A stretch of DNA of 64,000 bases from Octopus vulgaris (GCA_951406725.2 OX597817.1:70990001-71054000), one strand, 5' to 3'; counted from the first letter of the stretch, positions 6,240 to 62,974 are shown. The notes: generated from the letters alone by a model not told the origin. Numbers and translations are program-made.

Positions 6240-6503
6240 TAGAATGAGAAAAATGAATGAAATGAGGAAAGCATCTAACAATACAGAGATAAAAGTTGCA
6301 AAACCTTTATACATTTCAGGCGGAAAGGTCCATTTTCAGAAGAATACAGTCAAAAGAATGTCAACACTCATTTCTATGTAGACTGACATTTCTTTGACTG
6401 TACTCTTCTGAAAATGGACTTTTCCGTCCGAAATATATAAAGATTTTTCAACTTTCATATCTGTATTGTTAGAATTTTTTACTTAATTTTATTTCCTATT
6501 CTA
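6240..6503. repeat. Fold-back inverted repeat (~120-bp arms) carrying a degenerate hammerhead
   Basis: 6240-6363 is the reverse complement of 6384-6503 with scattered mismatches; CTT-CTGAAAA-T-GGAC(ttttcc)GTCC-GAAA-TATA-TA-AAG at 6405-6442. Confidence 0.75.
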
Positions 6504-6999
6504 CTTACGTACTACAATGCTTCAAGCGAACTACAACACTCTTCTAACATCTTAAGATTTATAATGATTAGTGAAGTTATCAATAAAACAAGTATAAAAG
6601 AATTTTTAGCAAATTAGAAATGTTTCATAAACTTATAAATATATGAATGTTAAGGATATAAAATTTGTAAAATAATTATTGTGCTTTAGTAGTATGACAA
6701 GAAATCCAGCGTAAAACACATTTGAGTATCCGTGTGCATTGAGAAGGTATCGGTTGTATGGCTTTTTTTAAAATCTTATAGGCAAGAGAAAAAGACAGAG
6801 ATCATGAACCTTTACATGGCCTCCAAGACTGGTAGGAGGAAATAATGATTTCGATCGGAAATCCGTGGTCGTCACTGGTTCTATTATTCTCGTCGTAGAC
6901 GGTAACCATCAACTCGGAGATCGTGCCTTCTCGGAGGCATTTGAACTCGGGATGCTTGATTAAGATCGTATGGGCACCGGCACCACCGGAGATTTATAA

Positions 7000-7590
7000 T
7001 GAGCACCTAAGGCTCCTCTATGTTGTAAAAGCGCCATCAGTCAGGATTTGGAATGCTCTACTAGGCAAACATATGTTGAGATCCAGGTCAGCCTAAGGGT
7101 ACAAAGAGTCGGCGACAAAATGATTGGCAACCTCAGCATAGGAGGAAACCGCATCGAAAACGCCTCCTTATTACAATGAACTGATGACAGTGATTTCGCT
7201 TCGAAAACTTACATAGACGGCATCGTTAAGGCTACGACTTCAGACATCGAATGCAAAGTATTACTACTTGGTGGCACTACTAAACCCATTGAAAATATAA
7301 AGTCGAACAGCAAAAATATTACTAACCTTGCTAATCCAATAAATATACAAGATGCAGCTACAAAATCATATGTTGATGCTAAATTTATAAAGACTACCTA
7401 CTCTTTATCACCAGCGATGGGAAATGAGTCAGCTATACGTACAGTGCCTATCACCGGTGCATCTTCCGCTTATCAAATCTCATTTAATTCCAATTTTAGT
7501 AGTTTGAATATAGCAACGGAAATAATGGGGACAGTTTATCCTTTAACCAAAAAACGGCGAAGTGTGATAATAACAACCACCTACTTTTAA
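7000..7590 (+). pseudogene. Viral fibre-like repeat protein remnant (Polinton/adintovirus-like)
   Basis: One frame from 7045 to 7590 with a single TGA (7177): GDKMIGNLSIGGNRIEN...DFASKTYID...KNITNLANPINIQDAATKSYVD, i.e. repeats of the ITNLAxP...DAATKxYVD fibre/stalk motif. Confidence 0.7.
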
Positions 7591-7781
7591 GTTATTTAAT
7601 TTACATTTAGAAGGGTTGGAGATAATGTTGAAATCTCAAACATGATAGTAAAGTATAGAAATAACTGGTTGGTCTGGTGAAGGGGTTTATCAGTCAGCTT
7701 TCGTTACACTATACGCTACCATTTAAAGAAAGAAATGATAGTGACGGAGTATCAGGTAAGGCATTTACAAATTTAGTGAAA

Positions 7782-8385
7782 ATGAAGCCAGCTACAGCAA
7801 GCCAAATCAACACATCGATATATCCCGAACTACCTTTTGGCAGCATTAATGAAGCACTCGCCAAAAATAGGTCTTCTTACTCCAGAAAGGTCTCGAATAG
7901 CGGGACCAACGAACAACCCTTTTCAAGGAGTACCGTCGAGGGTTAACATCCTAGATGGTGTTCATACTGCATTGCTCACAATCGAAGTGGAGATCGGCGT
8001 CAACAGTATGTCTACTATTATTGCGGCACCAGTTGTCTTGAGTCTTGAAATCGCAGCCTTGGTCTGCGACGTCCTTTGACTGTCCAGTAAATTCGGTAGA
8101 CGTCGCCTTGAAGTCAACGCGAAAAAAGAATGACATAGATCCGGGTTCAATGAAAAATAACCTGAACTTTATCTCTGACAATGTGTCAACCAGATGTTGA
8201 ATTCCGTTTCATGGTGAACGAGGTCACGAATATGAACAACGAGATCCATGATCGGATACGAAAATCGCATGCCGTAGTTGCCCCCTCGGTGATTGATCAG
8301 GAGACAAAAAATTCCCTCATTCAACTGTGCTGAGACGAAGCCCAAGTCAGCTCCATAATAAAGTTATCAGCTTCACCAAGATATG
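7782..8385 (+). pseudogene. Frameshifted remnant of a hydrophobic-hairpin protein typical of Polinton/adintovirus-like elements
   Basis: Joined frames: IYPELP...RDQRTTLFKEYRRG/VNILDGVHTALL...STIIAAPVVLSLEIAALVCDVL*LSSKFGRRRLEVNAKK...LNFISDNVS...DVEFRFMVNEV...DQETKNSLIQ; family recognised from memory, not searched. Confidence 0.6.
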
Positions 8386-9049
8386 CAACTTCACATATAG
8401 CAGTGCTAGCCAAGATAACCTGCCCCAGTACAACTCATGATATTCGTTTACTTATGGTGATATACCTTTGGTTTGTCGACTCTAGGACTCAAAAAGAGAA
8501 TAAGCTTCAGATTTCAAGCCTTCAAAATGATATCATAAAAGTAGGCCGTTTGTTGCCAAGGGACTTGGATCCACTTCTGCAACTTTCACTATGAGGACGA
8601 TAGCCAGCAGCAAGAATCTCAGGGGCGCAACGTCTGTCTCGCCTATTCACGGGAATACGAGACGAGTAGAGGCCCCATCACTGCCAACAACACTCACAGC
8701 CCCAATTTCTGAGACATACAATTTCTATGATGTCAGCCCATATTGGAGAGGGTGGTAGGTTGTCCCTCGGGTCTCTTTACAATTTTTTGTGGATACGTAT
8801 GTGTGCATATGTTTGAGGCTCCGCGTTCATAAAAAATTGGCAATTGTAAATGCAAGATCGATCCAGTTGTTGAGCACGCAATCCCTGCTGTTCCATGAAC
8901 CGACAAAGGAGCCTCTGCTTGGCGGCTCGACCAGCTAGAAACTGCAGCTAAATGTCCTTCAAATTAAATCCTACCGTCTTAAAAATAGAAAAGACGGGAT
9001 GATTAAGCTTGCAGTACATTTGACCATAGCTGTGTTCGACCAGGGCTGA

Positions 9050-10290
9050 CCAAGTATTACTATTAAAGCTACATCACTATCACCAACGCTGCCACTATCA
9101 TCACAAACATCATCATCATCATCATCATCATCATCATCATCATCATCACCAATACCGCAGATATCGTCAACACCACTATTACCACCGCAACCACAAACCA
9201 TGACCACAGAAATCATCACCACCGCTGCTACAACCACCACCATTACCACTACAATGGCCAACATCATCACTATGTCCATCATCATCATCATCATCCTCAC
9301 CACCACTACTACCGTAACCGCCATATACATCACCTCCATCACCATAATCATCGCTACCACCTCGTCTAACCACAGCTACCATTAGCAGCACCACTACGAC
9401 TACCACCATAACTACCAACACCACTACCATCACGACGACGACGACTACAACGACCACTGCTGTTACTATCACCGCTACAACCAGACCCAGTTGTTTAGAG
9501 TACAAGCAACTTCTTACACTTCACAGTTTCCCTTTATGTTTCAGTCTCTTCCTCCTCCATCTCCTCCTACTCCTCTCCCTCTTTCTCCTCCTCCTCCCAT
9601 ACTCTTCAACTTCTCTGTTTTTCCACGCCATTATCTTCCGCCGCCCCTCTCCCCGCCTTCCCCTATCCCCCCACCCCAAAACCCCATCTCTCAGTAAACA
9701 TCGCTACCACCCATCCGCCCACCCGCCTACCCACCTGCCCGCCTCAACCGCCACAATCGCCACCCTCACAATAAAGACGCAAAACAAAATAACACTTCAA
9801 CCGCCCCACCATCAACATTGTAATCACTATTAGTACCAACATTATAACTATCATCATCATCATCATCATCACAACAGCCGCCGCCACCATTGCCATCGCT
9901 GCCACAGCTACCGCAATCGCCATTACCACAACCCCACCTTTCACCACTATCACCACCATCACCACCATCATTTCCAACACTAACATCACCACCATCACAA
10001 CCACCACCGCTACCACCGCTACCACAACCGCCGCCGCCACCAACATCATGACGGTGAATATAATCATCAGCATCATCATTAAAATCACCATCGACATAAC
10101 CATCACCACCGATACTCTATCACCATTCCCCTCGCGAAACCCCCAACATCGCCACCACCATCACCATCACCACCACTACCACCTTATCCACCAGCACAGA
10201 AACTTTTCTATTCTTGTAGTAGTAGTAGTAGTAGTAGTAGTAGTAGTAGTGGTGGTGGTGGTAATGGTGGTGGTGGTGGAGTTATAAGGT
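9050..10290. repeat. Cryptic trinucleotide mosaic (CAT/CAC/CCT/GTA)
   Basis: Interleaved degenerate triplet runs. Confidence 0.9.
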
Positions 10291-61598: not shown

Positions 61599-61657
61599 TA
61601 TATATATATATATATATATATATATATATATATATATATATTTATTATATAGAAGGA

Positions 61658-61706
61658 GCTTCTACAGGACTAGAACTGTTTCATTCAAGAGAAATCTTCA
61701 GGAAGC
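61658..61706 (-). ncRNA. Type I hammerhead ribozyme (antisense copy)
   Basis: Exact reverse complement of 61887-61935. Confidence 0.8.
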
Positions 61707-61885
61707 ATATGATAAAAAACATCAAATTCCCGTTTGAAGAAGACCTCTTCCTCATGATAAAAAACATCAAATTCTCTACCAGTAATGATAAGTACGGCTT
61801 CAAATCAAATAAGGCCCCTCCTACCAACAGCCTACTTGAACCGTTTGAAGAAGACCTCTTCCTCATGATAAAAAACATCAAATTC

Positions 61886-61936
61886 AGCTTCCTGAAGATT
61901 TCTCTTGAATGAAACAGTTCTAGTCCTGTAGAAGCT
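61886..61936 (+). ncRNA. Type I hammerhead ribozyme
   Basis: AGCTTC-CTGAAGA-TTTC(tctt)GAAT-GAAA-CAG(ttctagtc)CTG-TA-GAAGCT. Confidence 0.85.
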
Positions 61937-62328
61937 CCTTCTATATAATAAATTAATTTTACTCTGCTATGTATTGAGTACCTTATTTACTGTGGTTAAC
62001 CCCGATTCAACCCGGGACCTACATATATATATATATATATATATATATATATATATATATATATATATATATATATATATATATATATATATATATATAT
62101 ATATATATATATATATATATATATATATATATATATATATATATATATATATACATAAATATATATAATGAGAACGTTTCTGTCGAATGAAAAAGGGGAA
62201 TATACATATAGGACAGCAGTGACCTGAATAATATTAATAATAATAATAATAATAATAATAACAACAACAACAACAACAACATCGAAAAATACCTCAGGAA
62301 TGAGAACCCAGGTTCGAAATTTCGCCAA

Positions 62329-62374
62329 GACACCTGATGAAGGCTGGTGTGTATATCAGCCGAAATGTTGTGTT
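62329..62374 (+). ncRNA. Minimal hammerhead ribozyme in PLE terminus 62215-62463
   Basis: GACAC-CTGATGA-A-GGCTGG(tgtgtata)TCAGCC-GAAA-TG-TT-GTGTT; paralogous to 35041. Confidence 0.75.
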
Positions 62375-62974
62375 AACGACAAACAAGATGAGGATAAATA
62401 CCCGTCAATTGTAAATAATGTAAATAATGTACATAATTCCTCATCTCATAAATATAGAACTGTTTCACCCAAATAGTTCAACAGTTGGACAAATCCTTAC
62501 AATCAGGCGAATGATTTAAAGTAAGAATGAGCAGAATATGATAGTTGTTTTACCTTTCACAGATTTCGCAGAATTCTGCGACTCGATCCACAAAGAAAAG
62601 ACGACAGAGATATTGCTAGTCTATGTCATTTTTGGAGAAAAGTGCTAGTGAAATCGGACTATATATCAGTACTGCTAAAACAGTATATATGTCTTACATC
62701 CAAGAACGGAAAGCTTCTCCTCTCAGAATGGAGAAGAATTAAGAAATAGAGAGCTACACATACCTTGGAGGTCATATCTCTAAACCATAAAGTGATATGG
62801 AAATCAGGATTAGTAAAGCATGGAGTGTACTTAACTGTTTGTGGATAAGATATAGAAATCTAATCTTCTGCGAAAAGCTAAAATATACATCTTCAGGGCT
62901 ATAGTTGAATCAAAACTTTCGTTTATAGTTCGATAGCATGGAAACTTACAATTCTCTTGAAGAAAACTATAAAT

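Follow-up and report, generated by a model that had tools for sequence, protein, structure and literature searches.

The 64-kb stretch of the Octopus vulgaris genome analysed here (G000:C4:70990001-71054000, the whole of which is termed the window; genome 2.80 Gb, 227 contigs) contains numerous hammerhead ribozyme (HHR) motifs, which we read as the ends of nine repeat families. Four of these families represent truncated insertions of Penelope-like elements (PLEs), two are gene-less tandem units that are likely moved by the same enzymes, and three are unlinked to a coding sequence. The fold-backs formed by several copies were likely made during insertion, and the ribozyme within them is predicted to be buried. 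We place the probability of this reading at a little under nine in ten. An earlier note on this DNA had proposed a separate, hidden layer of ribozymes; what is found is ordinary PLE insertion debris, with four families tracing to open reading frames (ORFs), pieces of which lie inside the window for two of them (61775-61885, family I; 34748-34930, family G).

Hammerhead motifs and their families

A type I descriptor of our own (in order, stem I, CUGANGA, stem II, GAAA, stem III and UH, with minima of 3, 3 and 2 pairs for the three stems) identified five perfect-core matches in the window, at 32891 (+), 33615 (-), 61701 (-), 61892 (+) and 62334 (+), and nine matches when up to one core mismatch was allowed, the additional ones being located at 6408 (+), 39142 (-), 48033 (+) and 50633 (-). 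Shuffled sequence did not yield similar counts, averaging 0.03-0.05 matches with a perfect core and 0.30-0.38 with one mismatch (maximum 2). The observed count was reached in 0/40 shuffles in all six tests, comprising three shuffling schemes (global, 500-nt block and microsatellite-free; 40 shuffles each) at the two thresholds, and the reversed window sequence contained no match. The window is rich in microsatellites, with 12,455 of its 64,000 bases masked. A CTGATGA at 7181 and other core words outside the parts listed below were rejected, as they failed the descriptor.

Each family was collected from the genome using one window copy as query, the best 40 of 96-2459 DNA candidates being scored, and majority sequences were derived from 19-30 aligned copies per family. 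All thirteen sites (14 coordinates) at which the earlier note had placed a dozen or more HHRs of unrelated families align to one family majority each, giving nine type I families (A to I). The descriptor is satisfied by the majority sequence of all nine, with different stems. The copies at four of the sites fail it: an element with long terminal repeats (LTRs; 16585-17958, 5-bp GCTGG duplication) splits the HHR at 16513/17978, where AAAA replaces GAAA; stem I is broken at 28010 and only 2 bp long at 19968, the weakest match (78% over 58 nt, E 4e-6); and an ATGATGA core is combined with a deletion at 35041. Broken cores occur in many window copies, and for families A, B and D the majority derived from other copies restores the element lost in the window copy. 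When remnants are counted, 15 segments of the window cover a core, in keeping with the suggested density of about one per 5 kb; by the descriptor the count is nine, in a window about twice as dense as a random genome sample (forty 10-kb stretches, 400 kb).

The HHR-bearing and associated features of the window are as follows (strand in brackets, where assigned):

4147..4400 (+): family G, tRNA-like head and endonuclease end with loss of the HHR; beyond the range of the earlier note
6240..6361 (-): family A short inverted arm with HHR, the core of this copy being CTGAAAA
6373..6545 (+): family A long arm; HHR 6404-6443, core CTGAAAA at 6408-6414 (family majority CTGAAGA)
11900-11963 and 12367-12421: family C tails
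16180..16403 (-): long inverted arm of family B on (TA)n, consisting of what lies downstream of the HHR
16436..16584 (+): family B, 5' half of HHR, core CCGATGA at 16518-16524; ORF-less head-to-tail unit of ~485 nt
16585..17958: LTR element interrupting stem II of family B's HHR, with a GCTGG duplication and LTRs of 290 bp that are 99% alike; separate from the HHR element
17959..18133 (+): family B, HHR 3' half (AAAA for GAAA here; stem III a palindrome), with the short end on (TA)n
19970..20026 (+): HHR remnant resembling family C, stem I of 2 bp, core CTGAAGA; the weakest of the sites
27529..27633 (-): remnant of family C, truncated within its core; absent from the list of the earlier note
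27731..27846 (-): family D short inverted arm, decayed HHR
27986..28160 (+): family D long arm, core CCGACGA at 28014-28020; Hydra-type PLE end
28779..28940: family I sister subfamily, perfect fold-back of the HHR 3' half, flanked by (TA)n on each side; long arm left, short arm right
32582..32829 (-): family E, HHR-bearing short inverted arm (core at 32700)
32850..33092 (+): family E long arm, core CTGAAGA at 32891-32897
33488..33644 (-): family F HHR, core CTGATGA at 33615
34748..35084 (+): family G, Poseidon-type endonuclease end (34748-34930), tRNA-like head and dead HHR remnant (35029-35084)
39040..39190 (-): family C HHR with CTGCCGA as core at 39142, against CTGTCGA in the family majority
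47881..48245 (+): a single ORF-less family H unit of 365 nt; type I HHR of canonical shape at 48027-48072, core CCGATGA; resembles a retrozyme and is very young
50530..50639 (-): family C HHR, core CTGTGGA at 50633
61640..61706 (-): short inverted arm of family I on (TA)n, spanning -5 to +61 relative to the core
61707..61885 (+): spacer of family I ORF N-terminus pieces
61886..62022 (+): family I long arm (-6 to +130), core CTGAAGA at 61892-61898, on (TA)n; young Hydra-type PLE end
62215..62460 (+): family G, terminal part of the head, then (AAT)n, HHR (core CTGATGA at 62334-62340) and tail

Three to four pair types are found at each stem I position across the nine families, in agreement with the claim that stems differ between families. 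The stem III segment is fully self-complementary in six of the nine families and paired around one central base in two more, although the descriptor does not demand full self-complementarity; in the random sample, full palindromes make up 6/20 real and 2/62 shuffled hits among stem III segments of at least 6 nt. In the alignment of family A, 82% of cells are paired, as compared with 24-56% for slid structures. The motifs of young families are intact, with perfect cores passing in 28/30 copies of family I and 14/20 of family G, while older families are decayed, only 3/20 copies of family A and 7/25 of family D passing at up to one mismatch.

Families linked to Penelope-like elements

Judged by their sequence, four HHR families adjoin PLE ORFs, of which I, D and E are Hydra-type and G is Poseidon-type (comparison of family flanks with PLE proteins; 64 queries). 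The proposed linking of each family to a PLE ORF succeeded for these four and not for families A, B, C, F and H. The description of the motifs as PLE termini that are diverse, mostly ORF-less at the locus, often inverted and located on (TA)n is borne out.

In family I, an HHR is located just upstream of an ORF comprising a reverse transcriptase (RT) and, at its C-terminal end, a GIY-YIG domain, and a second HHR follows the 3' untranslated region (UTR). A near-full-length copy (L031) consists of (TA)n, inverted arm, HHR, ORF, 3.2-kb 3' UTR, HHR and (TA)n, with an HHR-to-HHR distance of 5510 nt, and intact 713-amino-acid ORFs are present in L219 and L220. The translated product contains the motifs RWR, DKT, YRDD, CxCx5C, YIG, CxxC and CxH, shares 41% identity from end to end with P0037 (Pfam GIY-YIG above cut-off) and has 1082 homologs among 8000 candidates; many of the best 150 of 15,494 candidate RT matches are 99-100% identical. 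Family I shares with the Hydra clade the RW[K/R] (here RWR for RWK), DKT, CxxC and CxH motifs, the CxCx5C linker, the lack of CCHH, the HHR and the (TA)n target (PMC8557442; here and below, statements on published work follow the excerpts of the papers cited). It differs in its length of ~5.5 kb, including the 3.2-kb 3' UTR that is two-thirds simple repeat, from Hydra elements, which generally tend to be below 3 kb (PMC8557442), and is abundant and young here; the Hydra placement is by motifs, without a tree. An assignment to Neptune was dropped in favour of Hydra, whose definition the motifs match.

The family I 3' UTR (3189 nt in L031:2072-5261; also in L220 and L223) includes 2088 nt of TA/TG-rich simple repeat, and its first 900 nt look alike between copies. 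Through it, an active PLE may be spreading microsatellite-like DNA.

A Hydra-type ORF is located upstream of the family D HHR on the same strand in 5/25 loci, and its CxCx5C motif is shared with the Hydra clade (PMC8557442). In family G, the HHR region lies downstream of a Poseidon-type endonuclease end in 17/20 loci, the two being separated by a tRNA-like segment and (AAT)n, and an RVT_1 domain is found upstream in L316 (E 2e-9). The endonuclease is of the CCHH type and without a zinc-finger linker, with CxC in the core and two His residues (by eye in L302, L307 and L316; no tree), as in Penelope/Poseidon elements including Anolis PAc (PMC11167929). Family G, the commonest in the random sample (16/26 hits), differs from PAc in its tRNA-like A/B-box segment and (AAT)n between stop codon and HHR, where copies tend to start: 20/27 head-bearing arms begin within -17 to +8 of the tRNA-like head. 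Putative A and B boxes were picked out by eye, and a strict pattern locates both in 4/20 loci; Rfam returned no tRNA match for the head, and the single tRNA predicted by ARAGORN in 13 loci lies in L106, away from the family G head. Just after the head, L302 and L303 carry an insert of ~330 nt that resembles antisense small-subunit rRNA.

Fold-back anatomy and a proposed insertion mechanism

All six fold-back loci reported for the window are present, and each combines a long with a short arm. Four have (TA)n at both ends, D is bordered by a TA-rich repeat and (TTA)n, and A by neither; the arms of A, B, D and E are 82-98% alike. The further claim that every large inverted repeat, a MITE at 60216 excepted, is HHR-built holds for these tight fold-backs and fails for inverted pairs of short interspersed elements (SINEs), such as 39579-39813/41074-41308 (95%).

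Family I and its sister subfamily have an inverted arm in 40/52 unique loci, 40/40 being long plus short, in a sample from which short-plus-short pairs were excluded by queries that required the long end. The arms stop at ~+60 or ~+130 from the core, with one of each in every fold-back. They agree at a subfamily marker in 29/29 scoreable family I loci (of 36) and at a second marker in 27/27, and the identical marker in both arms indicates that they come from one template. Among 30 tail-selected copies, 5' ends fall at -6 to 0 in 18, further upstream in five, inside in seven and at the cut site in none, and 28/30 span the cut site (+38). Both subfamilies have a TATA-like box 29 nt above -6. The insertions are found in (TA)n, within which a target-site duplication is unreadable. 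In family E the 3' ends are bimodal, at +114-118 or up to +255.

The fold-backs are the inverted 5' copies known from PLEs and were likely made as run-off copies of uncut RNA. The endonuclease would cut a (TA)n target, and reverse transcription, primed internally near the 5' end of an uncut transcript, would run off after ~135 nt, leaving a stump of little beyond the HHR. The mirror arm, from the same template, could arise if synthesis were primed again, at +60, from the opposite end of the target; alternatively, the cDNA could fold back and join the target at the TA-rich tract near +60. Both the two-primer and the one-primer-with-fold-back routes would yield the same product. Full-length copies would derive from priming on the downstream end of a read-through transcript, and position -6 would represent the family I transcription start, as suggested by the TATA-like box. 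Internal priming and run-off on an uncut transcript are in line with Anolis PAc in vitro, where two internal RT starts, extension of both strands and uncut RNA as the main template have been described (PMC11167929), and an inverted copy with an optional tail is known for PLEs (PMC8557442, PMC3846280). Perfect palindromes that were not assigned to a family at L224:9434-9539, L243:173-373, L249:5170-5395 and L263:5141-5401, the first three beside (TA)n, are possibly PLE stumps without an HHR.

The family I 5' boundary could instead be a splice acceptor or an RT stall, an explanation that we consider doubtful and far from negligible. Two observations count in favour of an acceptor: position -6 is a fair one, the AG at -6/-5 being accompanied by a pyrimidine tract and, 100 nt upstream, by a GT donor; and there is a precedent in Drosophila Penelope, where helix I marks the end of an intron (PMC4209133, PMC2377424). 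The partial pile-up of family E at TTTCAG points the same way. The donor is, however, missing from the sister subfamily, where the TATA-like box keeps its 29-nt spacing, and at most one locus (L014) resembles an exon junction. Contigs from three presumed-RNA runs cover 28-29 of the 30 bins of L219:6350-8960, strand, start, level and editing not being readable from contigs, and no splice joint is listed among the four contig sets aligned to this region. Loose contig ends at -6 were rejected as a spliced exon, as they match the sister subfamily, which has 109 genomic matches.

ORF-less tandem units and families unlinked to ORFs

Families H and B consist of ORF-less units arranged head to tail, with periods of 365 and ~485 nt and one type I HHR each. 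As such, the listed sites at 48027 and 16513/17978 belong to tandem units resembling non-LTR retrozymes. The comparison with PLE proteins gave no match in 20 H loci and one match downstream of one B locus. The family H copies are 98-100% alike among the best 40 candidates scored, and the unit folds with a z-score of -6.75, none of 100 shuffles being equally stable; its arms end at about +212 or +271, with scattered 5' ends. In the window, the H unit interrupts a fragment resembling a long interspersed element (LINE; by eye, 47600-48400), with CTACTA on both sides.

From their sequence, H and B appear non-LTR-retrozyme-like and are likely moved by PLE enzymes. At the insertion level, PLE mobilisation is supported by the inverted copies of both families and by the long and short ends of H. 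They would be copied from tandem or circular RNA, without a fixed 5' end. Animal non-LTR retrozymes are likewise ORF-less head-to-tail units with one type I HHR, which H further resembles in its 365-nt, highly structured unit (PMC7229834; bioRxiv 10.64898/2026.07.22.740005), and a PLE origin of retrozymes has been described (bioRxiv 10.64898/2026.07.22.740005). Differences comprise the U4C core of H and B, the ~485-nt length of B and the PLE-type inverted copies, both families being known here from DNA.

The ends of families A, C and F are of the type seen in the PLE-linked families. Further HHR families were observed in the random sample (L224-L263), including a tandem relative of B with a canonical core (L234), and L231 contains 435-bp identical arms around a 1-kb palindrome.

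The ORF-less repeated units of H and B, the lack of an ORF link in A, C and F, and a centre junction common to L003-L006 could be taken to indicate that the stumps are independent gene-less hairpin elements, resembling miniature inverted-repeat transposable elements or retrozymes, which are copied as whole units. This is improbable, as the centres differ among otherwise identical family I copies, the spacer of the window copy of family I is ORF sequence, and families I, D, E and G run on into ORFs.

Density, predicted folding and RNA editing

The random 400 kb yielded 16 perfect-core hits (shuffles 0.2) and 30 hits at one mismatch (shuffles 3.2), many of them from further HHR families. Scaled up, this corresponds to about 110,000 and 190,000 motifs genome-wide, respectively; the hits are clustered, so these figures give the order of magnitude only. 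This suggests ~10^5 hammerhead motifs in the genome, an unusually high density.

In the fold-backs the arms are head to head, so that on either strand the antisense arm is transcribed first. Folds were predicted for either strand of five loci; in the 8/10 folds in which the core was located, 6-7 of its seven bases are paired, and the most distant partner is 57-209 nt away. The predicted outcome for read-through RNA is a hairpin in which the core is buried, rather than cleavage. The earlier note had left self-cleaving RNA and long hairpins as even choices; these folds favour the hairpins. Most genomic copies would be decaying and inert as ribozymes, with double-stranded RNA as the likely effect where they are transcribed.

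Nearby inverted pairs in the random 400 kb (arms of at least 40 nt, at least 78% alike and at most 2 kb apart, simple repeats masked) number 49, of which 13 are PLE- or HHR-related (some assigned by eye or through the comparison with PLE proteins), 15 derive from two SINE families and 21 are unassigned. By this share, PLE fold-backs are one source among several. A link to ADAR editing is plausible by analogy with palindromic-repeat ADAR substrates, which are likewise self-folding repeats needing no partner (PMC5625713). The same work describes a heavily edited lizard Penelope and an octopus that is exceptional in hyper-editing and double-stranded RNA potential; PLE fold-backs differ from that case in making up here, from DNA, about a quarter of nearby inverted pairs. 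Self-folding PLE stumps are a specific candidate for the origin of double-stranded RNA in a group of animals whose editing is extreme.

A bolder extrapolation, which we regard as rather unlikely in its entirety, is that Hydra and Poseidon PLEs mass-produce mirrored ribozyme run-offs (~10^5 motifs, tens of thousands of hairpins and a large part of the double-stranded RNA of octopus hyper-editing), that H is an active circular-RNA U4C retrozyme moved by PLE enzymes, and that G is a PLE with a captured tRNA-type promoter, spreading in a SINE-like manner.

Evidence against the proposed reading and further alternatives

Several observations weigh against reading the motifs as HHR ends left by PLE insertion. 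The core, which had been thought to be kept, is perfect in the majorities of five families (A, E, F, G and I) and carries a fixed substitution in the other four, namely U4C (CCGANGA) in B, D and H and A6U (CUGUCGA) in C. U4C is associated with lower activity in vitro, yet viroid infectivity is supported (PMC3088659). The G10.1-C11.1 pair is absent from families E, F and I, and when eight window motifs were folded in isolation, stability above that of shuffles was seen for H and G only. Covariation in family A does not exceed that of shuffles (113/500 as high; 12 copies; both sides change in 3/10 pairs), as would be expected if the copies decay neutrally. No ORF was linked to families A, C and F within flanks of 0.6 kb (A) or 1.5 kb (C and F), and the link of family E comes from one locus, a Hydra-like endonuclease end being located upstream in 1/25 (L048). 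The Pfam search of the family I ORF itself gave no significant hit, and its assignment to the PLEs therefore rests on motifs and homologs, with no tree. Furthermore, a sharp 5' pile-up is clear only in families I and G; that of E is partial, and in A, C, D and F the signal is weak or missing.

The motif density and the intact motifs of young families could also be explained by a regulatory layer maintained by the host, in which working ribozymes cut or mark host transcripts. The decay of older families, the lack of excess covariation among family A copies and the burial of cores in the predicted fold-back folds speak against it, as does the poor cleavage of minimal PLE HHRs, or cleavage only with the protein of the element (PMC4209133, PMC11167929), and we regard such a layer as very improbable.

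No Rfam hammerhead model matched: the window gave no hits at the gathering score and, among the 150 of 405 matches listed by E-value, simple repeats only; two single motifs gave no hammerhead match at E up to 10, and focused scans found neither hammerhead nor tRNA. This, the shortness of the motif in AT-rich sequence and the fact that about a tenth of the one-mismatch hits in the random sample are due to chance (3.2 of 30) might point to chance matches, or to fold-backs as artefacts of long-read assembly, a notion given virtually no weight in view of the shuffling tests, the asymmetric and diverged arms, and an inverted junction at -6 in the independent run X15.

Comparison with known systems

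HHR-bearing PLE ends are a known class, and the motifs themselves are no surprise; what is new is the members, the estimated density and the clean insertion signature. HHRs in PLE ends, with many families per genome and pairs on opposite strands, have been described for metazoans (PMC4209133). The families share with the minimal HHRs of metazoan PLE pseudo-LTRs the type I topology, a short palindromic helix III and an extra base after A9, and with the elements themselves the many families per genome, the predominance of solo truncated copies and opposite-strand pairs 100-700 bp apart (PMC4209133). They differ in the fixed U4C and A6U changes, in the three families without G10.1-C11.1 and in number, the ~10^5 estimated here being at least ten times the 2,000-9,000 per genome reported there with other descriptors.

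Two RT start sites giving a tail, an AT-rich target and an uncut RNA template are shared with Anolis PAc, in which tails measure 30-40 nt rather than the 55-135 nt found here (PMC11167929). How PLE tails and inverted copies form, and how ribozyme cutting of the template takes part, are open questions in the field (PMC8557442, PMC3846280, PMC11167929). Family I is a good system in which to test the mechanism, as it is young and has intact ORFs and sharp, countable ends.

Thirty-one recently active PLE families have been reported in an octopus (PMC13282606). Our search, made without supplements and with few subscription papers, found no published description of the present families or of octopus or cephalopod hammerheads, and the main text of a 2026 octopus repeat annotation contains no occurrence of 'ribozyme' or 'hammerhead'. 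The supplements of PMC4209133 (invertebrate genomes), PMC8557442 (mollusc Hydra families) and PMC13282606 (repeat library) may already hold some of the families.

Other features of the window

The LTR element at 16585-17958 is young; gag- and integrase-like words are recognizable by eye in its short internal part, and Pfam gave no hit. Decayed Hydra-like RT fragments are located at 56624-57235 (-; tblastn E 1e-7 and 1e-5), no adjacent HHR being found, and a 39-bp palindrome at 56379-56417 lies outside the HHR families assigned. Two LINE RT fragments (RVT_1) and a mariner HTH_48 fragment are found at 14381-14911 (-), 30282-31175 (+) and 12918-13280 (-), respectively. A 136-amino-acid open frame at 7180-7590 (+) has a weak Pfam match only (E 0.018) and contains a DAATKSYVD motif, presumably of the kind seen in tail-fibre-like repeats. 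A SINE-like unit of 184 nt is present in 3.2 tandem copies at 1683-2269.

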